Positions 2,741 to 50,170 of a stretch of 64,000 nucleotides of DNA are shown here, in pieces. Every line of letters starts with the position of its first letter. Within the stretch, counting starts at the first letter, position 1. The notes beneath the pieces are model-generated. The model saw only the letters and a list, made by a program, of their open reading frames with translations, did not search any database and had not been told where the DNA came from. The position numbers and the translations under genes are program-made. Origin of the DNA: Candidatus Azobacteroides sp. (GTDB taxonomy: Bacteria > Bacteroidota > Bacteroidia > Bacteroidales > WRGA01). The DNA lies in NCBI GenBank assembly GCA_009787405.1, contig WRGA01000123.1, positions 8,369 through 72,368 of the forward strand, written 5' to 3'.

Positions 2741-3634
2741 ATGAACGAAAAAAAGAGCGTACTTGTCATCATTAATCCGATAGCGGGAACTTCTCCGAAA
2801 AATCAAATTCCTTCTGTATTGGCTAAACGATTGAATCCGGCTCAATATACCGTCGATATACAATTCTCTGAATATAAGGGACATGCAGGTGTTTTGGCCA
2901 AACAGGCCGTCGACAATCGATACCATTATGTATTGGCGGTAGGAGGAGACGGAACGGTTAACGAGATTGCGCGAAATTTAGTTCATACCGATACGGCACT
3001 GGCTATTATTCCGTCCGGTTCGGGTAACGGCTTGGCCCGGCATTTGGGTATTTCTCTGCAAATATCAAAGGCCGTTGATGTTTTTCTTGCCGAAAATGTG
3101 ACTCCGGTCGATTATTGCAAAGCGAACGACACGTTCTTTTTTTGTACTTTCGGGGTCGGCTTGGACGCTAAAGTGAGTCAGGCTTTTTCTCAAAGGAAAA
3201 CCCGCGGATTGCATTCTTATCTGACCGGAGCCATCACCGAATTTGCCAAACTGAAACCTGAATCATACAAGATCACTCCCGAAAATGAAAAAATGTTCCT
3301 GCAAAAGGCGTTGTTCATTACTTGCGCCAATGCATCCCAATGGGGATACAATGTGTATGTGGCACCTACTGCAAGTGTTCAGGACGGATTGTTGGACATG
3401 GTTATTCTTCTGCCTTTCCCGATATACGACGCGGCGCCTTTAGGGGTTCAGTTGCTGACCAAAAATCTGGATAAAAGTAATTATGTAAAAGTTATCAAAA
3501 CCCGTCATGTGACGATCGAACGGGAAAAGGAAGGGGTGGCTCATGTAGACGGAGAACCGATCTTTATGGGAAAGAAAATAGAAATCAATAATATCAGAGG
3601 TGGGCTGAAAGCGTTGGTGCCGAGGAAAATATGA
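2741..3634 (+). CDS. Lipid kinase of the DAGK-catalytic / LCB5 / YegS family
   Basis: 297 aa. Motifs seen: VLVIINPIAG, nucleotide-binding GGDGTVNE, PSGSGNG and a C-terminal VDGEP. Confidence 0.85.
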   Translation: MNEKKSVLVIINPIAGTSPKNQIPSVLAKRLNPAQYTVDIQFSEYKGHAGVLAKQAVDNRYHYVLAVGGDGTVNEIARNLVHTDTALAIIPSGSGNGLARHLGISLQISKAVDVFLAENVTPVDYCKANDTFFFCTFGVGLDAKVSQAFSQRKTRGLHSYLTGAITEFAKLKPESYKITPENEKMFLQKALFITCANASQWGYNVYVAPTASVQDGLLDMVILLPFPIYDAAPLGVQLLTKNLDKSNYVKVIKTRHVTIEREKEGVAHVDGEPIFMGKKIEINNIRGGLKALVPRKI

Positions 3635-3639
3635 GGAAA

Positions 3640-3684
3640 GTTAAGAATTAAGAGTTAAGAGTTAAGAGTTAAGAGTTAAGAGTT
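3640..3684. repeat. Heptamer array (G)TTAAGA x about 6
   Basis: gttaagaattaagagttaagagttaagagttaagagttaagagttg lies directly after the kinase stop codon. Confidence 0.9.
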
Positions 3685-3811
3685 GATAAATGTGGGTGTA
3701 TATCAATGTTCTGAATGTGGCAGAGAATTTTTGTCGGGTGCAAAATTCTGATGGTTTTGGTAACCGAAGATGGTAGAAGATCAGTCGATAAAACGGCAAA
3801 TACTCAAGTAA

Positions 3812-3952
3812 TAAGTATGTCGTAAAAACCGGTTTATATTTTAAACGCGAAGTCGCAAAGGAGGAAAGACGCGAAGTTTAAATTCTTTGTAGTTTTGTGT
3901 GTTTGCTTCTTTGCGTTTAAAATAGTAGATATTAAATTCTGCCGGGTACTTA
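3812..3952 (+). repeat. Rep-135 copy A (ad hoc name): imperfect palindromic intergenic element of about 135 bp
   Basis: TAAGTATG..GTAAAAACCGGTTTATATTTTAAACGCGAAGTCGCAAAG..GACGCGAAGTTTAAATTCTTTG..CTTTGCGTTTAAAATAGTAGATATTAAATTCTGCC..GTACTTA. The ends are inverted (TAAGTATG / GTACTTA). Internal arms AAACGCGAAG / CTTTGCGTTT and GCAAAG / CTTTGC pair. Confidence 0.85.
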
Positions 3953-3987
3953 GACAAAAATATGTTTAATCAATAAATTTAAAAATC

Positions 3988-4362
3988 ATGTATTGTCCAA
4001 ATTGTCAAAGTCAAAATGAAGAAAACGCACAATTCTGCAGAAACTGCGGCTCGAATTTGTGGTATACGCCAGATTTGAAACAAGATAACGATGTATTGCT
4101 GTTGGTCTATATTCTCATAGCATTTTTTGCCGCTGTTGTTCAATTCGTAATTCAAAGAGTTTTTTCAATATCTTATTTTGGGAAATCACCTTGGATATAT
4201 GTTATGGGGTTAATTTGGATTATATCCAATATCAGTTTAATTCTACCTGCATTAGCAATAAAAAACAAATCATTGAAAATTATCGGTATTATTTTTGCCG
4301 CGATAATTATAATCTATCACGCATACGGAAATATTGAATTTATGTTTAATAATTTTAAATGA
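3988..4362 (+). CDS. Zinc-ribbon domain membrane protein
   Basis: 124 aa. It has an N-terminal CPNC-x10-CRNC zinc ribbon followed by hydrophobic helices. The stop codon TGA (4360-4362) lies inside the terminal inverted repeat of the adjacent MITE. Confidence 0.6.
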   Translation: MYCPNCQSQNEENAQFCRNCGSNLWYTPDLKQDNDVLLLVYILIAFFAAVVQFVIQRVFSISYFGKSPWIYVMGLIWIISNISLILPALAIKNKSLKIIGIIFAAIIIIYHAYGNIEFMFNNFK

Positions 4363-4629
4363 TTATCGGATGTTATGCCCGGTTCTCCCTGCAGGGAGAG
4401 GCAAAAAATGTGTCAATGTTTCAAAATATTCGTCTTTTTTTGTCCCGCCGGGGACATTATATCGGTAGAAAAACACCACACCCCTTCACCCCTTGTCCCG
4501 CCGGGGACAAAATGTTTTCCCTAACGGGACGGAAAACAACATTTTTTAGAACGGATTTTTCAAAAAAACGAATATTACATTTTTACATCCTACTTGGGGG
4601 TAGATAGGTGCAACATCCGATAATCATTT
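4357..4629 (+). mobile_element. TIR-MITE copy 1 (273 bp, non-autonomous)
   Basis: A perfect 18-bp terminal inverted repeat: AAATGATTATCGGATGTT (4357-4374) and AACATCCGATAATCATTT (4612-4629). The interior is built from GTCCC-N4-GGGAC hairpins. Near-identical ends recur at 21331 and 24517. Confidence 0.85.
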
Positions 4630-4744
4630 AATTTTATTAATTAAAATAACCGGAATAATATACGCCCCCTGATAAACGGGTTGGTGCCGAGAGTTATATT
4701 ACGTACCTGCGGCACGTTGTGTGGTTATGGGGGGTATGCATCAT

Positions 4745-4777
4745 TCTACCAATATTTTGTTCCTGACGGAACAATGT
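4745..4777. repeat. Solo CTACCAATAT / GT(T/C)CC-N4-GG(A/G)AC hairpin unit
   Basis: The sequence reads ctaccaatattttgttcctgacggaacaatgtt. Confidence 0.7.
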
Positions 4778-4803
4778 TATTATTGACACTAATCATCGAA
4801 TAC

Positions 4804-4863
4804 AAACATAACACAAAACAGGATGAATCCATGAAAAGATTCATCCTGTTTTGTGTTATGTTT
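4804..4863 (-). terminator. Perfect 26-bp stem-loop immediately after nuoL
   Basis: aaacataacacaaaacaggatgaatc (4804-4829) pairs with gattcatcctgttttgtgttatgttt (4838-4863) around an 8-nt loop. It starts 8 nt downstream of the nuoL stop (4872-4874). Confidence 0.6.
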
Positions 4864-4871
4864 CGGCTTGA

Positions 4872-6776
4872 TTATAAGAAAATTGCCAGACTTGCAATGA
4901 TAACCGCACCCATGATAAATACCCAAACGTATTGTTGGACATTCCCGGATTGAAATTCTTTGATGGCTCCCGAAGTTTTGTATACCCAAAACGCCTGAAA
5001 ATTCATAAATCCGTCCACGACATGACGATCGAACCATGCAACCGGTTCACAAATACGTTTAAAAATGATACTTTTGGTAATGAACAGATATAATTCGTCG
5101 AAATAGAATTTATGATACGCCCATCGGTAAACGATGCCGAATCCGGATGCAACTTTATCCGAAAGATTACTCCCGCTTTTATAAATCCATGTCGCTATAC
5201 CTATCCCTGCCAATGCGATGCAAATGGAAGGAACGGCCACCGTCCAATCGATATGATGTCCGAATCCGATTCCGTCACTTGTAACTAATTCGGAAAACGG
5301 CACTAATCCGGCTACAATCGTCAATACCGCCAAGAACACAAGCGGACCAGTCATCACCGCTCCTACTTCGTGCGGCTGATGATGATAATGACCGGTTTTA
5401 CCCCAAAATATGTTGTAATATAATCGGAACATATAGAATGCCGTCAGGCCTGCAACCAAAAATTGACAGGCAAAAACTATTTTATCGGCATGTAAAGCGG
5501 CCACCATGATTTCGTCTTTACTGAAAAATCCCGAGAACGGAGGGATTCCGGCGATCGACAGACAAGCGATCAAAAACGTAATGTGCGTAACCGGCATAAA
5601 CTTCCGTAATCCGCCCATATCCTTCATCTCATTGCTGTGAACAGCATGGATGACGGCTCCCGCACACAGGAACAACAAGGCTTTGAAGAATGCGTGTGTA
5701 AATAAATGGAACATGGATGCCATGTATCCCAATCCGTTATGTCCGCCATAACCCGAAACACCCAAAGCAACAAGCATGTACGCAATTTGAGAAATGGTTG
5801 AAAAGGCCAGCACCCGCTTGATGTCTGTCTGCGTACAAGCCACAACAGCCGCAAACAAGGAGGTCGCCGCACCCACATAGGCAATCCCGTGAAGCACTCC
5901 CGGAGTGATAAAGTAATAAACCGGAAAAAATCGTGCCACCAAATATACTCCGGCCACCACCATCGTTGCGGCGTGAATAAGCGCCGAAACAGGCGTGGGG
6001 CCTTCCATGGCATCGGGTAACCAAATGTGCAGCGGAAGCATGGCCGATTTTCCGGCGCCTCCGATAAAAATCAATGCCATGGCCCAGGTAAATACCGATA
6101 ATCCCATAAAAGAAGGGCCGACCGAACTTGCGACCAACGCGGCATGATTATCGGTCAATGCGGTAAAATCAAACGTGTTGGTATAATACGACAGGAATAA
6201 AATTCCGATCAAAAAGCCCAAATCGGCAAAGCGGGTCACAATAAACGCTTTTTTTGCGGCAGCCACCGCCGAAGGTTTGGTATAGTAAAATCCGATGAGC
6301 GAGTAGGACGAAACTCCCACCAGTTCCCAGAAAATATACATCTGAAAGATATTGCCGGCAACCACCAATCCCAACATCGAGAAGGTAAACAAAGATAACA
6401 GAGCATAATAACGCTGAAATCCGGATTCACCCTTCATGTACCCTATACTGTAAATATGCACCATCAGCGATACAGTGGTGATCACCACCAGCATCATTAC
6501 CGAAATCGGATCCAAAAGGATTCCCAAATGCACCCTCAATGTTTCGGTAAACTTGAGCCAAAGCACGTCATAAGGTTGTATTTGCCGGAATACGTCGTCG
6601 ACTTTTCCCTCCACAAAAAAATACCGGTAAGCAATAAAATAGGACAAACAGGTAATGACAACCAACCCTAATGTCCCGAGCAGCCCCGCAACTTTAACAG
6701 ACATTTTATGTCCCGCCAATCCCAACAGCAAGAACATAAAAAAAGGTATCGCGATGATAAAAATACTACAATCCAT
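4872..6776 (-). CDS. nuoL: NADH-quinone oxidoreductase subunit L
   Basis: 634-aa polytopic membrane protein of the NuoL/Mrp antiporter-like family, placed after nuoK in the operon. Confidence 0.9.
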   Translation of the reverse strand: MDCSIFIIAIPFFMFLLLGLAGHKMSVKVAGLLGTLGLVVITCLSYFIAYRYFFVEGKVDDVFRQIQPYDVLWLKFTETLRVHLGILLDPISVMMLVVITTVSLMVHIYSIGYMKGESGFQRYYALLSLFTFSMLGLVVAGNIFQMYIFWELVGVSSYSLIGFYYTKPSAVAAAKKAFIVTRFADLGFLIGILFLSYYTNTFDFTALTDNHAALVASSVGPSFMGLSVFTWAMALIFIGGAGKSAMLPLHIWLPDAMEGPTPVSALIHAATMVVAGVYLVARFFPVYYFITPGVLHGIAYVGAATSLFAAVVACTQTDIKRVLAFSTISQIAYMLVALGVSGYGGHNGLGYMASMFHLFTHAFFKALLFLCAGAVIHAVHSNEMKDMGGLRKFMPVTHITFLIACLSIAGIPPFSGFFSKDEIMVAALHADKIVFACQFLVAGLTAFYMFRLYYNIFWGKTGHYHHQPHEVGAVMTGPLVFLAVLTIVAGLVPFSELVTSDGIGFGHHIDWTVAVPSICIALAGIGIATWIYKSGSNLSDKVASGFGIVYRWAYHKFYFDELYLFITKSIIFKRICEPVAWFDRHVVDGFMNFQAFWVYKTSGAIKEFQSGNVQQYVWVFIMGAVIIASLAIFL

Positions 6777-6785
6777 ATCTTTTTC

Positions 6786-6862
6786 AGTTAAGAGTTAAGA
6801 GTTAAGAGTTAAGAGTTGAAGTAATTTTAAACTTTTAACTCTTAATTCTTAACTCTTAACTT
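6786..6862. repeat. Heptamer-array hairpin (TTAAGAG arm / CTCTTAA arm) in the nuoK-nuoL spacer
   Basis: agttaagagttaagagttaagagttaagagttgaag..aacttttaactcttaattcttaactcttaac; the two arms are complementary. Confidence 0.85.
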
Positions 6863-6869
6863 TATTATA

Positions 6870-7181
6870 TTAGTTTTTCATTTTATTGAGATTCTTAATA
6901 TCGATGTTTTGAATATTGCGGTAAATGTTGATAATGATGGCAATGGCAACAGCCGTTTCCGCAGCGGATACCGCAATGGCAAAAAGGGTAAAGAAAAATC
7001 CCTCCATTTGTTCCGGATATAAAAAACGATTGAAAACGACAAAGTTTATATCAACCGCATTCAAAATCAATTCTAAAGAAATCAGGATAGTAAGTGTGTT
7101 TCGACGGGAGATAAACCCATACACTCCCGCAAAAAACATGATGGTACTCACCACCAGATATAATTCCATCGGAATGTCCAT
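6870..7181 (-). CDS. nuoK: NADH-quinone oxidoreductase subunit K
   Basis: 103 aa with three TM helices. The ISLELILNAVDINF and SAAETAVAIAII motifs are typical of NuoK. Confidence 0.9.
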   Translation of the reverse strand: MDIPMELYLVVSTIMFFAGVYGFISRRNTLTILISLELILNAVDINFVVFNRFLYPEQMEGFFFTLFAIAVSAAETAVAIAIIINIYRNIQNIDIKNLNKMKN

Positions 7182-7200
7182 ATTTTTGATTATTGATTGT

Positions 7201-7343
7201 TAAGCATGTGGTAAAAAACAGTATATATTTTAAACGCCGAGTCGCAAAGCCGGAAAGACGCGAAATTTAAATTTTCTTTGCGAATTTGTGTCTTTGCATC
7301 TTTGCGGTTGAAATAATATAAATTAAATTCCGGCATATATTTA
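7201..7343 (+). repeat. Rep-135 copy B, inside the nuo operon (nuoJ-nuoK spacer)
   Basis: TAAGCATG..TATATTTTAAACGCCGAGTCGCAAAGCCGGAAAGACGCGAAATTTAAATTTTCTTTGCG..CTTTGCGGTTGAAATAATATAAATTAAATTCCGGCATATATTTA. It has the same orientation as copy A. Confidence 0.85.
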
Positions 7344-7385
7344 GTTTTTTTATTTGTATGCGGTTTAACGGCAATACCGGTAAAA

Positions 7386-7898
7386 TCATCGTTTTCTCGC
7401 AATCATGATTCCGCCGATGATACAAGCCAACAGTAATATACTGATTGCTTCGAAGGGCAATAAATATTGGTATTTCTCCGTCCCCATCAATGTTATTCCG
7501 ATATGTTTCATATCGATTTCTCCTCCGGAAACCGCTTCCGTTATTTTAATTCCGTTTTTCAAAACCACGTACAAACAGACTCCGATTCCGAGCACGGCAG
7601 CCGTTATTCCGGCCAACGTCTTTTTCACCGGTATTTTTTCCAATTTATCACCGGCATGGCTGGTCAGGAAAATGGAAAATATAAACAAGACCAATATTCC
7701 TCCGGCATAAACCGTAACTTGTACGGCAGCCAGAAAATGATAATCCAACATGAGATAAATTCCTGCCGTAGCCAACAAAACAAACAGCAAATAGGTGGCC
7801 GACCGCAACACCCGCCTTGTTGTTACCGTCATGACGGAAAAAGCCACAATCATCACCGCCAAAATTCCGAAAATAATTTGTGAAACAGATATATCCAT
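7386..7898 (-). CDS. nuoJ: NADH-quinone oxidoreductase subunit J
   Basis: 170-aa membrane protein; the call rests on its operon position and NuoJ-like TM pattern. Confidence 0.85.
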   Translation of the reverse strand: MDISVSQIIFGILAVMIVAFSVMTVTTRRVLRSATYLLFVLLATAGIYLMLDYHFLAAVQVTVYAGGILVLFIFSIFLTSHAGDKLEKIPVKKTLAGITAAVLGIGVCLYVVLKNGIKITEAVSGGEIDMKHIGITLMGTEKYQYLLPFEAISILLLACIIGGIMIARKR

Positions 7899-7921
7899 TT
7901 TAATTGATATTGTTCATTTGT

Positions 7922-8413
7922 TTATGCTTCGCCGGACGCCGATTTTTTCTTTTCTTCCAAACGGGATCCTTCGTTGTTTAATTTCATGATCAACTTGGAA
8001 CGAGTGAAAATCGCAGTCTCATAGTCTTTGGAAAATACAATTGCATTTGAAGGACATGTCAAAACGCATAAATTACAAAAGGTACATTGTCCCAGATTAT
8101 ACAAATAGGTATCCAATATTTTTTTCTTTTTTCCGTCTTCCGTCTCAATGGTTTGAGACGTTATTTTAATCGTTCCGTTCGGGCAATTCATCTGGCAAAT
8201 ACCGCAAGCTGTGCATTTGTGCTCATTATTTTCGTTATGAGGCATTGTCAAAACCCCCTTAAAATGTTCCGGCATGACCAATGTTTTCCGGTTTTCGGGA
8301 TAACTTTCGGTAACTTTCGGACGGAAAAAATTCACAATGGATACTTTTAACCCGGTGAGCAAAGAAACAATTCCCGTCACCCACGATTTCAGATATGCTG
8401 CAAAACCACCCAT
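7922..8413 (-). CDS. nuoI: NADH-quinone oxidoreductase subunit I (2x[4Fe-4S] ferredoxin)
   Basis: It has two CxxCxxCxxxCP motifs: CTACGICQMNCP and CTFCNLCVLTCP. Confidence 0.9.
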   Translation of the reverse strand: MGGFAAYLKSWVTGIVSLLTGLKVSIVNFFRPKVTESYPENRKTLVMPEHFKGVLTMPHNENNEHKCTACGICQMNCPNGTIKITSQTIETEDGKKKKILDTYLYNLGQCTFCNLCVLTCPSNAIVFSKDYETAIFTRSKLIMKLNNEGSRLEEKKKSASGEA

Positions 8414-8418
8414 TTTTT

Positions 8419-8485
8419 AAATTAAGAGTTAAGAGTTAAAAGTTAAAAGTTAAATATTCAAATGATCCGGTCGTAATTTTTAATT
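8419..8485. repeat. Heptamer-array imperfect hairpin in the nuoH-nuoI spacer
   Basis: aaattaagagttaagagttaaaagttaaaagttaaat, followed by a degenerate complementary arm cgtaatttttaattcgtaatttc. Confidence 0.7.
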
Positions 8486-8492
8486 CGTAATT

Positions 8493-9572
8493 TCAAAAGT
8501 GCCATTTGAATATGACGATTAATGCCATGAATAAGATATTCAATAAATTAAGCGGCAATAAATATTTCCATTCCAGATGTAAAAGCTGGTCTATTCTCAA
8601 ACGGGGAAACGTCCACCGCACCCACAATGAAAGAAAAATGCAGAAAAAAGCTTTCCCCAGAAACCATACAGGAGTCGGAATATAATCCATGACATGATTA
8701 AATCCGTCCAACCCGGGAATATGCAAAGGCTGCCATCCGCCCAAGAAAACGGTGGTGGCAATCGCCGCAATGATAAACATGTTCAAATATTCGGCCAAAT
8801 AATAAAAGCCGAATTGAATACCCGAATATTCGGTGTGATAACCCGCCGTCAATTCCGATTCCGCTTCGGGCAGGTCAAACGGCCCGCGGCTTGTTTCGGC
8901 ATGTCCGGCAATCAAATAAACGAGAAAAGCAATCAAAGCGGGAACATGACCTTTGAAAATAAACCATAAATCCGCCTGCTGATTCACAATCTGCGAAAGC
9001 TGCATCGAACCGGCAAAAATCACCATCGTCAATAAAGACAATCCGACCGACAATTCGTAACTGACCATTTGTGCTCCGCTCCGCATCGCTCCGATCATCG
9101 AAAATTTATTGTTGCTCGACCAACCGGCAAGTAAAACGCCCAAAACACCCAACGACGACACGGCCATCATATAGAATATTCCGATGTTGAAATCGATCGC
9201 CTGCAAGCCTTTGCCGAAAGGCAATGCTCCGAACGACAGCATGGACGACAAAATCACGATAAACGGCGCCAGATAAAATAATATTTTATCATTGTTGTTG
9301 ATGGGGATCAACTCTTTCAGCAATATTTTTATGGTATCGGCAAACGTCTGCAAAAGTCCGAATATTCCGACACGATTCGGGCCGAGACGACATTGAAACC
9401 ACGCGCAAATTTTCCGCTCGAACCATATCAAAATAATAGCCAATATAGCATAAGCGGCCAAAAGAGCTATGCCGACAAGAACAAGCTCAATGACCAATAC
9501 GCCGAAATCAGGCAGGTTCAATGCCCGCAAACTTTGGTCAATCCACTGAGTCAGTACTTTAAAATCAAACAT
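8493..9572 (-). CDS. nuoH: NADH-quinone oxidoreductase subunit H
   Basis: 359-aa polytopic protein with NuoH/ND1-like motifs ([37 protein letters not shown]). Confidence 0.95.
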
Positions 9573-11857: not shown

Positions 11858-12198
11858 TCCAACGCTCCTTTCTTCCATGCATAAGCTAATCCCAGAATCA
11901 GGATGAACGCAAAGAACAATACGTTTATCAAACCGACGACTCCCAAAGATTTTACGATAACAGCCCACGGGAAAAGGAAAACCGCTTCCACATCGAACAT
12001 CAAAAAGAGAATGGCATACAAATAATATCCCACTTTGAACTGCATCCAAGAAGTCCCGCGAGTGGGAATACCGCATTCATAAGGCTCTCCCTTCTGAACG
12101 TTAAACGAAGCCGGGGCAATAAGCGCGGCGATCGCCAAAGCGCCCGCCACCATGACGACGGCTGTTAAAACTACGGCTATAAATAAAGCAGAATTCAT
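11848..12198 (-). CDS. nuoA: NADH-quinone oxidoreductase subunit A
   Basis: 116 aa with three TM helices, the YECG and FLMFDVE motifs, and first position in the operon. Confidence 0.9.
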
Positions 12199-12459
12199 AT
12201 TATTGAATGTAAATCAATCGTTTTTTCAAATAAGCGGCAGCTGATCCCACCGACATTTTCGACTTTTATGATGAAAAGACCAAAAACTAAATTTTGGCGC
12301 AAAAGTAGGGATTATATTGATAGATAAAAAGTATTCCGATAAATAGTTTTATATGGAGGTTTGTTAATAAATGTGAAAATAATAAAAGGGAGATAAGAAT
12401 TGCATATTTTTTTGTCAATATCATTGAAAATGATTCATTTAACGATGAATTTCCAAATG

Positions 12460-12725
12460 AAACCGTCCCGTCAGGGACAGAATACCGGTAGAAAAAATCG
12501 CCTCCTTCACCCAAAGCCCTTTGGGGAGATAAATGAATGGAATTATTAAAATGATTTGATACTGAATTTGACAAGAGATCTATTTTAAAAATCCGGAATA
12601 ATATTTTGTCCCTGACGGGACAAGGAGATGAGGTGCCGGATTTTTTCTACCAATATATTGTCCCTGGCGGGACAAAAAACGACATTCGCTTATCCCGTCA
12701 AGGGTATTATATTGGTAAAAAATTC
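12460..12725. repeat. Cluster of GTCCC-N4-GGGAC / ACCAATAT hairpin units (MITE debris)
   Basis: gtcccgtcagggac (12465-12478), gtccctgacgggac (12608-12621), gtccctggcgggac (12660-12673) and ctaccaatat / atattggta flanks. The MITE terminal repeats are absent. Confidence 0.8.
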
Positions 12726-13180
12726 GGTGCCTCTCTTTTTACCATGCCCTGTTGCCGCACGATAGCGGATGACTAAAAATTCTAAAACTAAAAATTACAA
12801 TATTTTTCAAGAGCTACAAAGCATAATCTGGCGAAAAAATACATTTTTGCCAAAAAAAATTGCGAATTTCAATTACTTTTATCCATAAAAGCAGTATTTT
12901 TGTCATCAGATGATTCATAAAAAATTTTTTGTGTGATATAGAGACAAAAAACGGTGCCAGTAAGCACTATTTGTTCCGATTTTTCGAAAACATAAGACAT
13001 GATTACGGATTCTTAACGGATAGTGTAATCCCCTGTCGACAGGGAGGGAGTATTCATAGCGCTTATCGAAATGCTTGTAGAACACCTCGCGGAAGGTTAA
13101 ATTGTCCATTTGGATGATGTGAGCGAAATGTATATACGATTTTATAGAAAGATATAATTATTTAAAACTATTTTTTTAGT

Positions 13181-14062
13181 ATGAAAAAAATTTTATTATA
13201 TATAGGTTATATGGCTGCTATTATTACAATTATATATGGTATAATAGACGCAATTAAAAATCAACGTTATCTGTTATCTATTGTTACAAATGTATGGACT
13301 TGGGTTGTAATCGTATTTATTATTTTGGCTATTATTTTGTATGGATTATACAAACACATATATAGATTAAATAAACGCATACAACAACTTGAAAATGAGG
13401 GTATTATACCAATAATTGAGGGTAATTTTATGGGTGGTATACATAAAAAACAAGAAAGAAGTAAATATATTAATAACAATATGTCTATAACATTATTGGA
13501 AAAAATCACAGAAATTAGTGGATTCGACGAGTGTAAAGCCTCAAAAACAATAATGAGAATACATGGGATATTATCAAGAGATTCGGATAACTTTAAGTTT
13601 ATTATTAGTAATGATTCAATCTCGCATTCTCGGAGTGATAAAATAGATATTACTGCTAAAGATATCAGTGATAGTACCCCTACCCCCCTTAATATCTCTA
13701 CATCTGATGAAAGTAATAACAAAGAGTATACTGTTTCTTATGAAAAAAGAAAAACAGCGGGTTCTCTTATTGCATTAGAAATTTCGTGGACTTGGCCTAA
13801 AATGTTTGATATAGACGGTGGCTATGTTACATTATCTACCTGTTATTCAAAAACAACAAAAAAAATCAAACATACATTTATTCCTCACAAAGAACAAACT
13901 TTTGATGAAATATCACTTTGGCAATATAAAATTTCAAAAACTCCTTCATTCTTGCGAAAAATAGCAAAAGAAAAAGATATTTTTTCTTACGAAATTGAAA
14001 ATCCAGATGAAATGACGGATTATATTATAATTTATAAAAACTTACAACACCTAATTAACTAA
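13181..14062 (+). CDS. Hypothetical membrane protein (2 N-terminal TM helices plus an unassigned ~200-aa C-terminal domain)
   Basis: 293 aa in AT-rich sequence. The TM segments are LLYIGYMAAIITIIYGIIDAI and WTWVVIVFIILAIILYGLY, followed by RLNKRIQQLENEG. I do not recognise a family. Confidence 0.6.
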   Translation: MKKILLYIGYMAAIITIIYGIIDAIKNQRYLLSIVTNVWTWVVIVFIILAIILYGLYKHIYRLNKRIQQLENEGIIPIIEGNFMGGIHKKQERSKYINNNMSITLLEKITEISGFDECKASKTIMRIHGILSRDSDNFKFIISNDSISHSRSDKIDITAKDISDSTPTPLNISTSDESNNKEYTVSYEKRKTAGSLIALEISWTWPKMFDIDGGYVTLSTCYSKTTKKIKHTFIPHKEQTFDEISLWQYKISKTPSFLRKIAKEKDIFSYEIENPDEMTDYIIIYKNLQHLIN

Positions 14063-14085
14063 ACACACTAAAATTTGAAAATACA

Positions 14086-15153
14086 ATGATTAACTTAAAA
14101 GATATGCTTGATGCGGATACTATTTTGAAAGAAAAATATCGTATTGAAAATTTGAATAATAGTATTATTACTTTAGAGTGTTTTATTAGCCAAGAATGTA
14201 ATCTGCAATGTAAACATTGCTATTTTGGTGATAAATTACCAAGCAAAAACCAATTATCGATTGATGAATGGATTGGCATCATAGAAAATGCAATACAAAA
14301 TGGGATTAAACATTTTCATTTTTCAGGTAAAGAACCATTATTAAATAATGATTTGTTTCCTATATTAAACTATATTTCGGAACGAAAGGATACATATGGA
14401 TTATTCTATGGCATTGTAAGTAATGGTGTAAGTGTTGAAAAACATATATATAAAAATCTTTTATTGACAAACTTAGATTATATTGAATTTAGTATTGAGG
14501 GGACAAAAGACATTAATGATTTTATTCGTGGAAATAATCATTTTGATAAATTGATAACAACATTAGGGGTTTTACTACCTAATGACAAAATCAGTACTTC
14601 AACTACTTTATCAGAAATAAATAAAGATTACTTTTTGGATTTAATGGACATATTGATAGAAAAGAAAGTAACAAAGATATTTGCTGCACCTATACATTTT
14701 GTAGGTAGTGCTACACAAAATTATATAAATATGATTTCACCTATTGATTTTTTAAACCTTATAGAAAATTCAATCAAAAAGATAATACAACTAAAACACA
14801 TAAACCATAAGATAGACTTAAAATTTTGTATCAGTGATTTTTATACGGAATATCTGATTAATAACGAGCATTTTATGTCAGAAAAATTAAAGTTGTATTT
14901 AGAAGATGGCGAACCTATATATTGGAATATTGATGGACATATCGTTGAAATTGTATTGCAGTTTGTTGATATGCCATTTGTAAAACAATTAATAATTACA
15001 GCTGACGGTTATATATTATCTAATGCCGATGATATAGATAAATACAATTATTATGAATCAAGTTTGGCTAATGCAAGAAATTGCGATTTTTCCAAAATAA
15101 TGAAATTAAGAAAAAAATATATTAATGATTACTTTACAAATTTAATTGTATAA
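14086..15153 (+). CDS. Radical SAM enzyme without a Cys-rich SPASM/twitch extension
   Basis: 355 aa, starting 23 nt after the previous gene. It has the CNLQCKHC (Cx3Cx2C) motif near residue 38, SGKEPLL (a GGE-like SAM motif), VSNG, EFSIEG and NDFIRG. The C-terminal ~130 aa contain only two Cys. Confidence 0.8.
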   Translation: MINLKDMLDADTILKEKYRIENLNNSIITLECFISQECNLQCKHCYFGDKLPSKNQLSIDEWIGIIENAIQNGIKHFHFSGKEPLLNNDLFPILNYISERKDTYGLFYGIVSNGVSVEKHIYKNLLLTNLDYIEFSIEGTKDINDFIRGNNHFDKLITTLGVLLPNDKISTSTTLSEINKDYFLDLMDILIEKKVTKIFAAPIHFVGSATQNYINMISPIDFLNLIENSIKKIIQLKHINHKIDLKFCISDFYTEYLINNEHFMSEKLKLYLEDGEPIYWNIDGHIVEIVLQFVDMPFVKQLIITADGYILSNADDIDKYNYYESSLANARNCDFSKIMKLRKKYINDYFTNLIV

Positions 15154-15156
15154 AAA

Positions 15157-15279
15157 ATGAAAAAATTAAAAATTAAAATACTGCCTGTCGAAGATGGTAG
15201 TGATTCAGGGAGTAAAGGGTTGTTCTTTTTCAATAAAAAGAAATTGGATAAAAGAAAAGAGAAACAACAAAAGAACTAA
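15157..15279 (+). CDS. Possible 40-codon micro-ORF 4 nt after the radical SAM gene
   Basis: Hand translation gives MKKLKIKILPVEDGSDSGSKGLFFFNKKKLDKRKEKQQKN*. It is too short for the ORF track. It may be a chance ORF in AT-rich DNA. Confidence 0.2.
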   Translation: MKKLKIKILPVEDGSDSGSKGLFFFNKKKLDKRKEKQQKN

Positions 15280-15323
15280 AAATATTTGGTTAGTAAATAA
15301 GACAAAGGGAAGTGCTTTGCCGT

Positions 15324-15356
15324 GGCGGACATGCTGTCCGTCCGCTTGTTTATTCA
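15324..15356 (+). terminator. Candidate terminator of the island cassette
   Basis: GCGGAC (15325-15330) pairs with GTCCGC (15340-15345) and is followed by TTGTTTATT. Confidence 0.35.
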
Positions 15357-15407
15357 AAAGGACTTGCAGTCCGACTCCGAACTCGGCATAGCGTCTTTCG
15401 TCATAGT

Positions 15408-15708
15408 CACCTAAGTCTGCCCCGATTTCGTGGTTAAGAAATCTAATCGGAATGATGTCAATCAGATAAAATCCTTGTTCGTGATAAAGTCCGCTTAGTG
15501 GCAAGGCAAGAATCTATATAACCAATTTCCCTTATTTTTGTACAAGGGTTTTGCCAAAAGACCCTGTCCGAAAAAGAAAGGAATAAGGGCGGCGGTTAGA
15601 TGTTATCCCTCTGCTACTAAACGTTCCTTTGTGAATAAGGGTTTCCTTATTCGTTCATATCCGGTAAATTGTATTTCTTAACCCCTAAATCGGGGCAGAC
15701 TCCGGTGG
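15408..15708. repeat. Inverted-repeat-bounded ~300-bp segment (candidate inverton or TIR element)
   Basis: The left repeat is cacctaAGTCTGCCCCGATTTcgtGGTTAAGAAAT (15408-15442). The right repeat is ATTTCTTAACCcctAAATCGGGGCAGACTccggtgg (15673-15708). The 15-bp and 11-bp blocks are perfectly complementary, and GCATAGC recurs just outside on both sides. Confidence 0.75.
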
Positions 15709-15791
15709 CTATGCGCAGCAGCGGGAGAACGGTACCGGGGTGTGGTTTTTCACCGGATATCGAAGGTAGTAGTATTTTATTCCCGTTATTT

Positions 15792-15869
15792 TCGCACAGA
15801 TTTCACGGATTTCACGGATTTTGAAAATATCCATTAAAAAAATCCGCGGAATCCGTGTAATCTGTGCGA
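15792..15869. repeat. CACGGATTT-type long hairpin
   Basis: tcgcacagatttcacggatttcacggatt (15792-15820) pairs with aatccgcggaatccgtgtaatctgtgcga (15841-15869). This is a stem of about 29 bp with a few mismatches and a 20-nt loop. Confidence 0.8.
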
Positions 15870-15884
15870 GGAATTATTCAATTT

Positions 15885-15915
15885 CTACCAATATTTTGTC
15901 CCTGACGGGAGACAA
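15885..15915. repeat. Solo CTACCAATAT-GTCCC-N4-GGGA hairpin unit
   Basis: The sequence reads ctaccaatattttgtccctgacgggagacaa. Confidence 0.7.
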
Positions 15916-15930
15916 AGGGATCATGGTGCT

Positions 15931-15972
15931 TATAAAACTAAAAAGACGAAACCTTCTAAAGTTTCGTCTTTT
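15931..15972 (-). terminator. Rho-independent-type terminator of the RRM gene
   Basis: aaagacgaaac (15942-15952) pairs with gtttcgtcttt (15961-15971). On the minus strand the stem is followed by TTAGTTTTATA. It lies about 70 nt downstream of the stop at 16040. Confidence 0.6.
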
Positions 15973-16039
15973 ATTCCGGTCGCCGAAAATCAAATCCGGC
16001 GTTTTAATATCCTGATTTCGCTTTCAGATTAAACAACAT

Positions 16040-21297: not shown

Positions 21298-21330
21298 GAC
21301 GACAATGATTAATTGATTTATAATAAAACT

Positions 21331-21589
21331 AAATGATTATCGGATGTTATGCCCGACTCTCCCTGCAGGGAGATGCAAAAAATGTGTCAATATTTCAAAA
21401 TATTCGTCTTTTTTTGTCCCGCCGGGGACAAAATGTTTTCTTTTTCACATTACGTCCCCGGCGGGACTTTGGACACCGGAGAAATTCTCCTTTCTACCAA
21501 TATGTTGTCCCCGGCGGGACAAAAAAACGAATAGTACATTTTTACATCCCACTTGGGGGATAGATAGGTGCAACATCCGATAATCATTT
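21331..21589 (+). mobile_element. TIR-MITE copy 2 (259 bp)
   Basis: It has the same 18-bp terminal repeats as copy 1 (AAATGATTATCGGATGTT .. AACATCCGATAATCATTT) and the same orientation of the internal CAAAAAATGTGTCAAT..TTCAAAATATTCG segment. Confidence 0.85.
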
Positions 21590-21722
21590 AAAACTAATAA
21601 GTGTATGTCAAAAATCAGGTTATATCCATTCCGGGAACAAAAGAAATTATCGGAAGTTATCAGCCGGTGCCGACTTCCGATAATATTCCGTTTAACTTTC
21701 CGGATATATTCTTTACATGCAA

Positions 21723-23879: not shown

Positions 23880-24353
23880 ATGAAAGTTACCTTATTGGTT
23901 GTCGGGAAAACAACCGAACGTTATTTTATTGACGCCGTCGATGAATACACCACAAGGCTCAAACATTATCTTCCGTTTGACCTGACAGTGATTCCGGATG
24001 TAAAAAACGCCAAAAATTTGAATTCCGATCAATTAAAAGAAAAGGAAGGAACCGAAATTTTAAACTATTTGGAACCGGGCGATTATATTATTTTACTGGA
24101 TGAGCACGGAAAGGAATTCACCTCCCTGAAATTTGCCGCTCACATGGAAAAAAGAATGGCCGGAAGCGGGAAAAGAATTGTTTTCGTGATCGGCGGCGCT
24201 TATGGATTTTCTCAAAAAGTATACGAAAAAGCTCACGATAAAATATCGTTGTCCAAAATGACTTTTTCGCATCAAATGATCCGCCTGATTTTCACGGAAC
24301 AGCTTTACAGAGCCATGACCATCCTTAAAGGACAAGCTTATCATCATGAGTAG
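23880..24353 (+). CDS. rlmH: 23S rRNA (pseudouridine1915-N3)-methyltransferase RlmH
   Basis: 157-aa SPOUT fold, with MKVTLLVVGKT, VFVIGGAYG and a C-terminal GQAYHHE. Confidence 0.9.
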   Translation: MKVTLLVVGKTTERYFIDAVDEYTTRLKHYLPFDLTVIPDVKNAKNLNSDQLKEKEGTEILNYLEPGDYIILLDEHGKEFTSLKFAAHMEKRMAGSGKRIVFVIGGAYGFSQKVYEKAHDKISLSKMTFSHQMIRLIFTEQLYRAMTILKGQAYHHE

Positions 24354-24377: not shown

Positions 24378-24509
24378 TAAGTATGCGTAAAAAACGGTTT
24401 ATATTTTAAACGTTAAGGCGCAAAGACGTGAAGTTTAAATTCTTTGTGACTTTATGTCTTTGCATCTTCGCATTTAAAATAGTAGATATTAAATTTTGCC
24501 GCGTACTTA
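24378..24509 (+). repeat. Rep-135 copy C
   Basis: TAAGTATGCGTAAAAAACGGTTTATATTTTAAACG..GAAGTTTAAATTCTTTG..CATTTAAAATAGTAGATATTAAATTTTGCCGCGTACTTA. Confidence 0.85.
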
Positions 24510-24516
24510 TTAATAT

Positions 24517-24864
24517 AAATGATTATCGGATGTTATACACGGTTATTCCTACAGGCGGGATATAAAAAATGTATCAATGTTTCAAAAAAATATTCGTTCT
24601 TTTTTGTCCCGTCGGGGACATTATATCGGTAAAAAAACACCACCCCTCCACTTTTTGTCCCGTCAGGGACAAAATGTTTTCCTTCCCGCATCACGTCCCT
24701 GACGGGACTTTGGTCTCCGGAGGAATTCTCCTTTCTACCAATATGTTGTCCCTGACGGGACGGAAAACAACATTTTTCGTCCCGGATTTTTCAAAAATAA
24801 CGAATATTACACTTTTTACACCCCACCTGCGGGGATAGGTAGGTACAACATTCGATAATCATTT
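24517..24864 (+). mobile_element. TIR-MITE copy 3 (348 bp; carries extra internal hairpin modules)
   Basis: The left end is AAATGATTATCGGATGTT and the right end AACATTCGATAATCATTT (1 mismatch). Internally it combines the modules found separately in copies 1 and 2. It begins 7 bp after Rep-135 copy C. Confidence 0.8.
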
Positions 24865-24951
24865 TAATATTTAATTTCATAATACTACATACAAAGAATC
24901 ATTATGGGATTTTTCTTACATTCATTTCACCCGTTTTGGTTCTTGACTCTG

Positions 24952-36111: not shown

Positions 36112-36236
36112 AATAAATATTTTGTCCCTGACTAGACAAGGTAAAAGGGAGAACCCGTACTTTCTATCAATATAATACCCCTGACGAGATAAGCGAATGT
36201 CGTTTTTTGTCCCGTCAGGGACAAAATATTGGTAGA
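36112..36236. repeat. Cluster of GTCCC-N4-GGGAC / ATATTGGTAG hairpin units
   Basis: aatattttgtccctgactagacaagg .. tttgtcccgtcagggacaaaatattggtagaa. Confidence 0.75.
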
Positions 36237-36417
36237 ATAGGAATTAAGAATTAAGAATCGGGTAGCAGAATAGGATTATTGTGTTTTTGATTATTCTTTC
36301 TATCAGACAACATGTCCGACAGAATATCGAACAATAACCATAAAAAATATTACCGGATATTTTGCAGAAAATATCCGGTAATATTTTTTGTTTTTGAAAA
36401 ATTAACTTTTCGGAATC

Positions 36418-37584
36418 TTATTTTGCAATTTTCACTGTTTCCGTTTGACCTCCGGCGATTATTTTGGCGATGTAAATACCGTTAGCCAAGTTCGACAAAT
36501 CGATCGTCGACACATTTTGTCTCGAAATAAGAAGACGACCATTGACATCGTAAATTTGGGCTGTACCGACAACATTCAAATAAAGCGTATTGTTTGAATA
36601 ATAATAACTATCGGTAATCGACGGTATATTGATCCCTGTAGATTGTGATAAAAATTTAATATTATCAAGATAAAAATTCGAATTGTTATAACTAAAACCT
36701 AACGCCATATCAAATGTATTTAATGCTAATAACCCATCATCAGATAATAACTCGGATAAAGGAATTTCTTTCAACAACCATGTTCCGGTTGCATCATTCA
36801 AAATCAAATTATTAACAGAGACAGGGGGGTCAACAGTTGTCGAGAATGAAGTGCCTTCTGGCCCGATGTAACAATTAACACGCTTATATTGATTTTGATC
36901 ACCGAAACCCGGCATAAAATAAATATTAAACGTTATTTTTTCGATATCAGCCAATGTTTTTCCATCCGGCAATTCAACTGTAAATCTAGGATAAGCATTA
37001 TAATTCGTTACAATGACGTGCAGGGATTTTTCGCTGGCCCCAGTCGGATCAGGTTCAACAGTTGCCACAACATCGTTATTAGCCCATCTATACGCACTCG
37101 GATACGCATCATCAATCTCATCCCCCTCAAAATCAAGAGATGTCGATGGAACCAACGGAATAACAGCCGCACTTACGACTATACTGACAAGGGTTGCTCC
37201 GTTATATACATTAATGGTGATGCCACTTTGACTATACTGGTCAACATAATATACTCCGTTTTCTTTCGCATAATCCTTAAAATCGGCAATCGTAAATTCA
37301 TAAACATTCTCTGCTCCTTCCGATGAAGCGGCTTTGCAAACAAAATCATAAGGTGCCGCATTACTTCCGGAATAATTAATCGGCTTGATTGTTCCTATAC
37401 CCCAACCCGGAGCGACACTGGAATTAGCGTTACTGACACTCAACGTAACGGTTACCTTTTGGTTATCTGCATAATTTTCGAAGTCGCTCAATTGAACATT
37501 GCCATATTGATCAAAAGGAATATCTGCTGCAAAAACACCTGCACTCAAAAATATGGCACATACGACAAGTAATGTCTTTTTCAT
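36418..37584 (-). CDS. Secreted protein with one CBM-like module and a T9SS C-terminal sorting domain
   Basis: 388 aa with a signal peptide. The module LDFEGDE..HVIVTNYNAYPRFTVELPDGKTLADIEKITF..NFYLDNIKF is paralogous to the modules of 37857..39080. The C-terminal domain (CTD) ends IYDVNGRLL..IDLSNLANGIYIAKIIAGGQTETVKIAK. Confidence 0.7.
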   Translation of the reverse strand: MKKTLLVVCAIFLSAGVFAADIPFDQYGNVQLSDFENYADNQKVTVTLSVSNANSSVAPGWGIGTIKPINYSGSNAAPYDFVCKAASSEGAENVYEFTIADFKDYAKENGVYYVDQYSQSGITINVYNGATLVSIVVSAAVIPLVPSTSLDFEGDEIDDAYPSAYRWANNDVVATVEPDPTGASEKSLHVIVTNYNAYPRFTVELPDGKTLADIEKITFNIYFMPGFGDQNQYKRVNCYIGPEGTSFSTTVDPPVSVNNLILNDATGTWLLKEIPLSELLSDDGLLALNTFDMALGFSYNNSNFYLDNIKFLSQSTGINIPSITDSYYYSNNTLYLNVVGTAQIYDVNGRLLISRQNVSTIDLSNLANGIYIAKIIAGGQTETVKIAK

Positions 37585-37714
37585 AATAATTAATTTTAAA
37601 AATGAATAATATAAATGACGGAAAGAAAAATAAATAATCTATAGCGAGATAAGTTACGAAATTCAACCGGCTTGGAACAAATAATGATTATACGTTATTT
37701 ATTATTCCGACCTG

Positions 37715-37859
37715 AACAAAGGTCGCAAAAACCGGTTTATTTTTTTAAACGCTGGATCGCAAAGACAGAAAGACGGGAAGTTTTAATTCTGTGCCTTTGT
37801 GTCTTTGCTTCTTCGCGGCTGAAAATAACAGACATTAAATGCTGTCTGTCATGTACTTA
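37715..37859 (+). repeat. Rep-135 copy D
   Basis: GGTCGCAAAAACCGGTTTATTTTTTTAAACGCTGGATCGCAAAGAC..GGGAAGTTTTAATTCTGTG..CTTCGCGGCTGAAAATAACAGACATTAAATGCTG..CATGTACTTA. The last 3 nt form the stop codon of the next gene. Confidence 0.8.
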
Positions 37860-39080
37860 TTTTGCAATTTTCACTGTTTCCGTTTGACCTCCGGCAATTA
37901 TTTTGGCAATGTAAATACCGTTAGTCAAATTCGTCAAATCTACCGTCGATACATTTTTGACCGCAACCAGTAATCGACCATTCGTATCATAAACATATAC
38001 TTCTTCGGCTTGTGCATTTCCTACGTAAAGGATGTTATCGGAAAAGTAACCGGTTTTGCCGACGGATATTTCCGGGACGCCTGTATTTTCTTTGGCTCTC
38101 AACGTCACGTTGTCCAGGTAATAATTTCCGGCTTCGTGAGACATTCCGAATGCCAACGTAACCGGATTGCCTGATGTTGCGCCTGCTAAGGAATACGTTT
38201 TGGTCACCCATGTATTCGCCGAACCTTGAGCCGGATAACCGGCATCAACATAAAATTGACTTCCGTCAATATAAATGTTCATTTGTTTGTATTCCTGTTG
38301 AACAGTATATAAATCAAACGAAAATTCATCATAATCGGCCAAGGTTTTCCCATCCGGAAGCGTTACCGCCAAACTCAAGAAAGCATCGTAATCCGTTGTT
38401 ACAATATGCGCACATTGTCCGTGCGTTCCGGCAGTCGATGGGTCGTCTACTACAGTCGCCGTTATCTTTCCGTCGCCGTTTTTTGAAATAACGGGAAGAC
38501 TTTCTCCAAGTGTGTAACCTTCAAAATCGAGGGTTAAATAGCGATCGGGGGAAATTACTTCTTCCAACCGGACATTGGTAATATAATAATTTCCGGCTTC
38601 GTGAGATATTCCAAGCGCTAATGTAAACGTGTTATCCGCTGTAGTAGTAGCACCTTCCAAGGAATATGATTTGGCATTCCATGTATTTGCCGAACCTTGA
38701 GAAGGATAACCGGCATCGACATAAAATTGTTTTCCGTCAATATAAATATTCATTTGTTTGTATTCTGTCGCAGAAGTATACATATCAAACTTTAATGCTC
38801 CGTAATCGGCAATGGTTTTTCCTGCCGGCAACGTTACATCCAACTGCCAAAAAGCATCGTAATCCGTTGTTACAATATGCGCACAATTTCCCTTTGTTCC
38901 GGCAGTCGATGGATCGGCTGCTACCGTTACCGTTATTTTACCATCGCCGTTTTTTGAGAAAACGGACAGGGCATCACCTATGTTTTTGCCGGCCAGGCCG
39001 TCAATCACCACTTCGGCAGCAGAAATGTTTGCTGTAAAGGCAAATGCTGCCATAAAAAAAATTGAGAATAGCTTTTTCAT
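37857..39080 (-). CDS. Secreted protein with two tandem CBM-like modules and a T9SS C-terminal sorting domain
   Basis: 407 aa. Residues ~21-178 and ~179-335 are clear duplicates (SKNGDGKIT.TV..DPSTAGT.G.CAHIVTTDYDAF..L.VTLP.GKT.ADY..F.FD.YT...EYKQMNIYIDG.QFYVDAGYP.QGSANTW). The CTD tail is identical to that of 36418..37584. Confidence 0.7.
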   Translation of the reverse strand: MKKLFSIFFMAAFAFTANISAAEVVIDGLAGKNIGDALSVFSKNGDGKITVTVAADPSTAGTKGNCAHIVTTDYDAFWQLDVTLPAGKTIADYGALKFDMYTSATEYKQMNIYIDGKQFYVDAGYPSQGSANTWNAKSYSLEGATTTADNTFTLALGISHEAGNYYITNVRLEEVISPDRYLTLDFEGYTLGESLPVISKNGDGKITATVVDDPSTAGTHGQCAHIVTTDYDAFLSLAVTLPDGKTLADYDEFSFDLYTVQQEYKQMNIYIDGSQFYVDAGYPAQGSANTWVTKTYSLAGATSGNPVTLAFGMSHEAGNYYLDNVTLRAKENTGVPEISVGKTGYFSDNILYVGNAQAEEVYVYDTNGRLLVAVKNVSTVDLTNLTNGIYIAKIIAGGQTETVKIAK

Positions 39081-39113
39081 AAAGATTAATTTTTAAAAAG
39101 TGAATACTTGTTT

Positions 39114-39386: not shown

Positions 39387-39391
39387 TACAT

Positions 39392-45968: not shown

Positions 45969-45981
45969 TGCTTTTTTATTT

Positions 45982-50164: not shown

Positions 50165-50170
50165 CTGTTT

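Follow-up and report, generated by a model that had tools for sequence, protein, structure and literature searches.

Correia/NEMIS elements of Neisseria, enterobacterial ERIC/IRU sequences and pneumococcal RUP elements are multi-copy, non-coding, intergenic repeats of 100-150 bp with terminal inverted repeats, which can fold as transcripts into a single long hairpin, occur within operons and at the ends of genes, and differ in presence or absence between related genomes; Correia and RUP elements have TA at both ends. Arrays of short tandem units make up the cyanobacterial STRR, intergenic runs of tandem 7-nt units that are not generally described as 130-140-bp palindromic units, and the inverted terminal arms of the eukaryotic foldback (FB) transposons, which are kilobase-sized and transposase-linked. 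Here we describe Rep-135, an imperfect palindrome present in six copies in a 64,000-nt stretch of DNA (the window) from the uncultured, termite-gut-type Bacteroidales bacterium Candidatus Azobacteroides sp. (assembly GCA_009787405.1, contig WRGA01000123.1, positions 8,369 to 72,368 of the forward strand). Rep-135 is probably a lineage-specific family of foldback DNA, resembling MITEs (miniature inverted-repeat transposable elements) and REPINs, inserted in the intergenic DNA of this genome. Two further systems provide the closest comparisons. REP sequences and REPINs, which are mobilised by RAYT proteins, are dispersed extragenic palindromes located mostly downstream of genes or between convergent genes, occur in several phyla and form larger hairpins as inverted dimers (PMC3733652, PMC3116915). 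The GTAG- and CGTC-tagged REPs are 20-40-nt hairpins with stems of 5-13 bp (GTAG) or 8-9 bp (CGTC) and an unpaired tag (PMC3733652). The Geobacter metallireducens sites of classes 1-3 (GTTGCTYN x4, TCTCCGTS[Y] x3 and MTYCTGA x5; Aklujkar et al. 2009, PMC2700814) are multicopy, intergenic sets of three to five tandem 7-9-nt units, paired on opposite strands at a variable distance; ISGme8/9 insert next to them, and binding of IHF/HU was only guessed (PMC2700814).

Rep-135 shares with the Correia, ERIC and RUP families all of the properties listed above, including the presence/absence differences, and possibly the terminal TA. It differs from them in showing no sequence similarity, in having arms that are tandem octamer arrays, in that no cognate insertion sequence (IS), transposase or demonstrable target duplication was found in the window and the fetched DNA, and in being conserved between lineages at its centre, not its termini. 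With respect to the MITE definition (under ~500 bp, non-coding, dispersed copies), there are six copies of 108-145 nt and relatives in five contigs, with terminal inverted repeats and insertion polymorphism, the latter not to the base. The likeness to REPs and REPINs lies in the dispersed extragenic palindromes, the inverted dimeric layout, the occurrence in several phyla and, for the CGTC class, in the equal lack of a known transposase; in contrast to these, the units of Rep-135 are non-palindromic tandem 8-mers without a GTAG or CGTC tag. CGTC-tagged REPs were considered specifically, as the octamer contains GACG/CGTC, and were ruled out, since those consist of an 8-9-bp stem, a 4-5-nt loop and an unpaired tag. 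A possible resemblance to the ends of IS903 and IS5 was considered and dropped as unconvincing. STRR and FB elements resemble Rep-135, by their general description, in the arrays of short tandem units and in the inverted arms of tandem repeats, respectively. The Geobacter sites are the closest architectural match, given that Rep-135 has about four octamers per arm, inverted about an 8-nt loop, in six copies. The unit sequences differ, however, that of Rep-135 being NCGCNAAG / CTTNGCGN rather than GTTGCTYN, TCTCCGTS[Y] or MTYCTGA, and the Geobacter sites were reported from one genome only, with no cross-phylum or phage distribution (PMC2700814).

A profile hidden Markov model (HMM) built from the six copies recovered exactly these six from the 64-kb window (nhmmer, 100-150 bits, E-values of 1e-30 to 1e-45), the rest of which contained no further copy and scored no better than E ~3. 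The copies reported by the first-pass annotation are thus all present, namely A (3812-3952, full length, 141 nt, 148 bits), B (7201-7343, 143 nt, 141 bits), C (24378-24509, 132 nt, 122 bits), D (37715-37859, 145 nt, 133 bits), E (59465-59604, 140 nt, 150 bits) and F (60476-60583, ~108 nt, 100 bits), the last being shortened, as had been noted, and also degenerate, with a match to model positions 23-140 only. They align over ~140 nt with a mean column identity of 76%. All six share one orientation, on the + strand, and, because reverse-strand self-matches score only 24-43 bits, Rep-135 has a direction. No more copies were found along the source contig, a 127-kb metagenome contig (ENA ERZ27257293) from a Bacteroidota organism, in an extra 8.7 kb upstream and 7.9 kb downstream. 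The window contains no tRNA genes and no open reading frame (ORF) is involved in the copies. The description of all copies as strictly intergenic does not hold for copy D, whose last three bases, TTA, are the TAA stop codon of the gene at 37857-39080 (- strand).

The palindrome is built as an octamer array, an anatomy overlooked by the first-pass annotation together with the uniform orientation and the core common to distant phyla and phages. In the general plan, an outer flank of ~33 nt from TAAGTATG is followed by the border TTTTAAAC, about four octamers NCGCNAAG and the loop TTTAAATT; the second half comprises about four inverted octamers CTTNGCGN and an outer flank of ~36 nt ending in GTACTTA. 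The unit is of the type CGCAAAG+N, a non-palindromic 8-mer. In copy A, on the + strand, the left flank (3812-3844; TAAGTATG...TATATTTTAA) includes the border TTTTAAAC; the purine-rich left arm (3845-3876) consists of the four tandem octamers ACGCGAAG TCGCAAAG GAGGAAAG ACGCGAAG; the loop (3877-3884) is TTTAAATT; the pyrimidine-rich right arm (3885-3916) consists of the four inverted octamers CTTTGTAG TTTTGTGT GTTTGCTT CTTTGCGT and forms G.T wobbles against the left arm; and the right flank (3917-3952; TTAAAATAGTAGATATTAAATTCTGCCGGGTACTTA) ends in GGGTACTTA. Both flanks are family-specific. The left flank is kept in 10 of the 12 family members that were aligned (the six window copies and six relatives) and pairs with the right flank in the minimum free energy (MFE) fold of copy A. 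Self-identity within the arms is 0.66 at lag 8, compared with 0.19-0.33 at the other lags between 3 and 12. In the 12-member alignment, length differences are exact 8-nt units: copy C (where this appears as an 8-nt alignment gap) and the relative L024b lack one left unit, copy F lacks one right unit, and the relative L035c lacks one per side. Such whole-unit indels fit, as a sequence signature, slippage within tandem arrays.

Terminal inverted repeats, TAAGTA(T/C)...GTACTTA, are present, and copy C pairs end to end over 132 nt. The inverted ends described previously were confirmed in A, C and most relatives, but D has a degraded left end, E a degraded right end, and F no such ends at all, lacking TAAGTATG and GTACTTA. 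The proposed mutually exclusive internal pairings are real in that the segments do pair; since each arm consists of about four tandem octamers, however, they represent 8-nt register shifts between octamers and not alternative functional folds.

Several lines of evidence indicate insertion. Copy B lies between nuoJ (7386-7898, - strand; Pfam Oxidored_q3) and nuoK (6870-7181, - strand; Pfam Oxidored_q2), which places one copy inside the nuo operon, as had been stated, and antisense to it. Homologues of nuoJ place the organism near Candidatus Azobacteroides (78% identity, the nearest named relative). The nuoJ-nuoK gap measures 204 nt with copy B, both in the window and in L046, a JGI contig with a 99% identical nuoJ protein. 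The relatives at 86, 82 and 78% identity have 12, 6 and 6 nt, respectively, between TAA and ATG at this junction, and neither Rep-135 nor any core (see below) occurs in ~55 kb of these relatives. The comparison of orthologous spacers suggested by the first-pass annotation thus revealed a presence/absence polymorphism, with the site filled (204 nt) or empty (6-12 nt). At copy D, the paralogues 36418-37584 and 37857-39080 share an identical sequence up to and including ...GCAAAATAAG, and their divergence sets in exactly at the boundary where the element begins; TAAG already occurs at the unoccupied site of the paralogue. Non-syntenic sites on five contigs of sample JGI24699J35502 hold family members whose outer flanks are the same (90-137 bits); these contigs also carry the window's other repeat family. 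No synteny was detected between the window and these JGI relatives, which hence provide no base-exact empty site. One copy in L035 is split at the loop by a foreign element of ~268 nt (3113-3385, - strand), flanked by TAA/TAA and containing its own internal hairpin (CCCGCCTATTCCCTTATT...AATAAGGGAATAGGCGGG); this appears to be the nested insertion of a third element with a 3-bp duplication. Signs of decay are seen in the degenerate copy F and in the eroded ends of D and E, and in a second sample the contig L022 breaks off within copy E.

The inner part of Rep-135 has a far wider distribution. A 25-base core pattern, TTTTAAACG-N6-CGCAAA...TTTG-NN-TCTT-N-GC, which matches 6/6 window copies, was searched in a collection of 185,579 species genomes (596 Gb), where we calculate a chance expectation of ~0.03. 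It returned 20 genome loci from at least six phyla, in addition to 23 metagenome loci. The genome loci include nine from Chlamydiota metagenome-assembled genomes (MAGs) and three from MAGs labelled only 'uncultured bacterium'; the others are from a MAG labelled Bacteroides fragilis and from Polaribacter, Prolixibacteraceae, Blastocatellia, Byssovorax, Wenzhouxiangella and Omnitrophota. The core TTTTAAAC-(GCAAAGNC)n-loop-(GNCTTTGC)n is accordingly found in Chlamydiota, Bacteroidota, Acidobacteriota, Myxococcota, Gammaproteobacteria and Omnitrophota. Common to these loci are TTTTAAAC, two to four (GCAAAGNC) units, an AT-rich loop, an equal number of inverted units and GTT(T/G)AA. The outer flanks are themselves inverted repeats and differ by lineage. 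Several loci hold two or three core copies within 2-14 kb, and most of the cores in other phyla lie within 60 nt past a stop codon, many of them between convergent genes. The purine arm precedes the pyrimidine arm in almost every bacterial core, although L031 may hold a single small exception. At the variable base of the octamer the arms are complementary in 34/63 cases versus 28.5 in shuffles (p = 0.08), and core mismatches are balanced (G.T 88 vs A.C 77) with no strand asymmetry; hence, the unit sequence and not the helix is kept across lineages.

The neighbours of the cores are unrelated housekeeping genes, which rules out a hairpin travelling with one gene cassette. An autonomous element was suspected in L018, where two cores are 1.8 kb apart, but the gene between them is an ordinary transporter-like gene and not a transposase. 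BLAST searches of the core against plasmids and of copy C against phages gave no match. In one Chlamydiota MAG (L001, 4137-4226) the core lies 25 nt past the nuoL stop with a same-strand gene immediately downstream, a second tight junction beside a nuo gene holding such an element, in a different phylum.

Arrays of the same unit occur in viral contigs. Three consecutive CGCAAAG units were found at 81 viral-contig loci, versus 6 for a permuted unit of the same composition; only the single-arm pattern is represented, the full hairpin pattern having no match in these contigs. The contigs that hold the arrays belong to genuine, uncultured tailed phages and encode portal, terminase and capsid proteins. 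Most of their arrays are lone arms bordered by TCTCAC/TCTCGC, frequently at a distance of 5-40 nt to a start codon; ~61% are intergenic, although by a crude call ORFs make up ~88% of this DNA. No protein family is common to 80 of the phage loci, the largest cluster covering 12/80. A second unit, CACAGAG, is similarly common (89 loci) and forms foldbacks of the type AAC-(CACAGAGN)3...(CTCTGTGN)3-GTT with a polarity of 25 vs 2. In the same phage contigs heptamer arrays, built of many different units, are found at a density of about one per 4 kb. Literature string searches for CGCAAAG or CACAGAG arrays on both strands found no paper containing them in the library searched, and the Rep-135 core appears to belong to a wider, apparently undescribed class of octamer-array elements.

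Some related arrays were noted along the way. CACAGAG+N foldbacks in the viral contigs L142-L220 include L147 9801-9886, L161 4755-4860 and L174 558-646, with up to three or more per GC-rich phage contig. In L065 two adjacent modules have the common frame AGAGATAATCTTTTAAA but units that differ, CTCTGTG and CTTTGCG, suggesting that units are replaced while the frame stays conserved. The window itself contains TTAAGAG heptamer arrays (and their complement) in short intergenic spacers at 3627-3698, 6774-6861, 8415-8472, 45970-46041 and 50157-50222, two of them inside the nuo operon. The array at 6774-6861, between nuoK and nuoL, is a foldback, (AGTTAAG)4-loop-(CTTAACT)4, with the architecture of Rep-135 and a 7-nt unit.

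Given the filled and empty sites, the common outer flanks at non-syntenic positions and the decayed copies, a MITE- or REPIN-like family is the explanation that we favour. Its spread would depend on a trans-acting, sequence-specific protein, transposase-like or another DNA-binding protein, that recognises the repeated octamers; such a protein is inferred because the octamer sequence is conserved across lineages and arm-to-arm pairing is not. Phages could carry the octamer module between hosts. Once inserted, Rep-135 would be mostly neutral baggage. A transcript from either strand would form a long hairpin and might be a target for RNase III or act as a 3' stabiliser, hairpin formation being a side effect that may still influence mRNA processing.

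A number of observations weigh against this explanation. The filled nuoJ-nuoK site has 42 + 19 = 61 nt beyond the element, so that the boundaries of the insertion cannot be fixed to the base, and the relatives with the 'empty' site are only 78-86% identical. Only six copies were seen in ~81 kb. No direct repeats flank the copies outside their termini, and the only candidate for a target duplication, TA at both ends, is inseparable from the inverted termini. The window and the ~17 kb of contig extensions yielded no transposase, RAYT of the IS200-IS605 type or recombinase with matching ends, for which the first-pass annotation had suggested looking, and 407 kb of scanned DNA contained no transposase between arms and no lone arms with an ORF between them or with a distant partner. 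In every lineage the conserved arrays are central with lineage-specific sequence outside, the reverse of a classical MITE. Finally, the sharing of one short unit across phyla could in principle be due to convergence on a favoured motif and not to descent or transfer.

The leaning of the first-pass annotation was towards a structured non-coding or cis-acting RNA, a hairpin with alternative folds kept by selection on pairing, which we regard as very improbable. As it had predicted, the + strand RNA of every window copy folds into one long hairpin (MFE -23.5 to -47.9 kcal/mol), which is nearly perfect in copy C. The + strand is always more stable than the - strand (copy A -43.1 vs -23.5, copy C -47.9 vs -30.5 kcal/mol), and the sense orientation is the more stable one in 12/12 family members; stem mismatches in the family favour G.T (87) over A.C (46), one-sided changes mostly yield G.U, and the six window copies share one strand. 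The G.T wobbles, however, are mostly present already in the family consensus and are therefore inherited from a master copy rather than the product of independent repeated selection, and the asymmetry is absent from the cross-phylum cores. The statement that substitutions between copies often preserve pairing was not borne out, since both sides had changed in only 2/31 pairs, no more than in shuffles, and the example cited for copies B and E is not compensatory, as E pairs in 12/12 positions and B in only 9/12. Covariation was no better than in shuffled alignments (score 0.128 vs a shuffle mean of 0.124, with 166/500 shuffles at least as high); the RNAalifold covariation term was +0.42 and paired cells amounted to 95.4% versus 95.0% in shuffles. 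An RNA function is also difficult to reconcile with the orientation of the copies, which is unrelated to neighbouring genes, and with copies of opposite orientation within 1-4 kb in L024 and L035. No Bacteroidetes-type TAnnTTTG promoter was seen by eye in the consensus. The whole window gave no Rfam match at gathering score, and E-value mode with copy C gave sub-threshold hits only, mostly miRNA-precursor hairpins at 14-26 bits compared with gathering scores of 40-211; the element is a genuine, multi-copy and unnamed imperfect palindrome, in keeping with the failure of the first-pass annotation to recognise a named family. Bidirectional intrinsic terminators or REP-like 3' mRNA stabilisers, whose likeness would stem from a function at transcript ends, are distinctly unlikely as well. 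Such a function would agree with the cores of other phyla near stop codons and between convergent genes, with the position of copies A, C, D and E after gene ends, and with the fixed polarity, by which a transcript of either strand ends in ...GCG-UUUAAAA. An intrinsic terminator is defined by a G+C-rich stem and a U-tract (5 or more U in 8); all six copies have tails that read TTTAAAAT or G(T/C)TGAAA, with only three T, and a generic scan of 3000-8500, covering copies A and B only, called neither a terminator nor a sigma-70 promoter at these two. Rep-135 is hence probably not a canonical terminator, promoter or structured RNA gene, with the scan for the former two covering A and B. Moreover, the cores show no preference for placing the better U-tract on the transcribed side (TTT starts 64% of 'used' and 70% of 'unused' tails, p = 0.67), a terminator would be polar at copy B and at the Chlamydiota core past nuoL, copy F lies between divergent promoters, and a function by itself could not account for loops and flanks being identical from copy to copy.

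The main rival holds that the octamers are arrays of binding sites, maintained because a host or phage DNA-binding protein, for example a nucleoid-associated protein or global regulator, uses them, the palindrome being two inverted arrays on duplex DNA. This is not exclusive of selfish DNA, and we judge it rather unlikely. Ribbon-helix-helix proteins bind tandem 7-8-bp units, as in the metboxes of MetJ and in the sites of omega repressor and ParG. In favour of binding sites are the conservation of octamer sequence without arm complementarity across lineages, the near-fixed purine-then-pyrimidine polarity, also seen in the CACAGAG foldbacks, and the predominance in phages of lone arms in short intergenic spacers close to start codons. 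Sites of the same architecture in Geobacter metallireducens carry the annotation 'predicted global regulator binding sites' (PMC2700814), but this assignment is only its authors' guess. Against such a role, the distribution is sporadic, with none in the ~55 kb of relatives and ~20 loci in 185,579 species genomes under the strict pattern; no candidate protein is encoded nearby and none is common to the phage loci; and one protein for each of the many different 7-8-nt units in the same phage contigs would be unparsimonious. A chance or low-complexity similarity, or an assembly artefact, might be suspected in an AT-rich region with other simple repeats in the window; it is refuted by E-values of 1e-30 to 1e-45, by the same copies in independent assemblies from other samples (L022 and L046) and by diverged relatives in a different metagenome.

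With regard to gene context, copies A and C are co-directional with their neighbouring genes, copies B, D and E run antisense to theirs and copy F has a divergent gene pair on its two sides; the orientation is hence independent of these genes. Copy A is located between a diacylglycerol-kinase-like gene (2741-3634, + strand) and a zinc-ribbon ORF (3988-4362, + strand). Copy C starts 25 nt past an rlmH-like gene (23880-24353, + strand) and abuts a different repeat of ~300 nt. Copy D is placed between two tandem paralogues with Por_Secre_tail domains (Pfam) on the - strand, and copy E is flanked by two - strand genes (59648-60364 and 56459-59323). Copy F ends 6 nt before the folC ATG (60590), as the first-pass annotation had reported.

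As the GC skew of the + strand is negative across the window, the six copies lie on the C-rich strand and share one orientation relative to the replication strand. The idea that orientation is locked to this strand (6/6, p ~0.03) is weakened by the opposite-orientation copies of L024 and L035, and the shared orientation may be due to chance. The only positive GC skew in the window is found at 12001-16000, where G+C is 0.32 versus ~0.42; this segment, which contains an ORF without Pfam match (13181-14062) and a radical-SAM gene (14086-15153), may be acquired DNA.

Other repeats and features of the region were recorded. A second repeat family of ~270-360 nt is found at 4325-4640, 21299-21600 and 24509-24875, with fragments at 12446-12739, 15876-15924, 36143-36249, 40195-40259 and 46143-46186. 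It has terminal inverted repeats of 50-60 nt (TAAATGATTATCGGATGTT...) and internal GTCCC-N-GGGAC hairpins, is unrelated to Rep-135 and looks like another MITE; it abuts copy C and adjoins Rep-135 copies in L037 and L042. Directly past the nuoL stop is a near-perfect inverted repeat (4789-4878) with 41-nt arms and an 8-nt spacer, which the generic scan called a strong terminator-like site on the - strand; no nuoM or nuoN was found downstream of nuoL in the window or in the relatives L049 and L051. Around copy D, the interval 36418-40235 contains three tandem paralogues with C-terminal Por_Secre_tail domains (type IX secretion sorting), two of which share identical 3' ends. In L053 (20176-21206), ~9 kb beyond the left edge of the window and just past mnmE, an HTH_17 gene is followed by a tyrosine integrase with Arm-DNA-bind_5, Phage_int_SAM_5 and Phage_integrase domains, which probably marks the border of an integrated mobile element.

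By itself, Rep-135 only adds another family to the small palindromic repeats. It can serve in strain typing and account for breaks in assemblies, and it demonstrates that 143 nt of DNA able to form a hairpin can be accommodated between nuoJ and nuoK. It is a tentative proposal, which we think possible but doubtful, that Rep-135 is part of a cross-phylum, phage-borne class of foldbacks and lone arrays of C[GA]CA[AG]AG+N octamers, with a reader protein and further members. If this were true, the unit would be read by a conserved protein, either a new enzyme of transposition or recombination that acts on multimeric 8-bp sites or a factor of wide occurrence that binds DNA or RNA; the octamer module would travel between phyla in phages, and the Geobacter sites, the (TTAAGAG)n foldback of the window and the phage heptamer arrays would be further members. 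Should one factor read these octamer arrays, the outcome would be either a new mechanism for mobile elements or an additional level at which genes or the nucleoid are organised, and the orphan repeat classes of the 2009 Geobacter catalogue would be accounted for.

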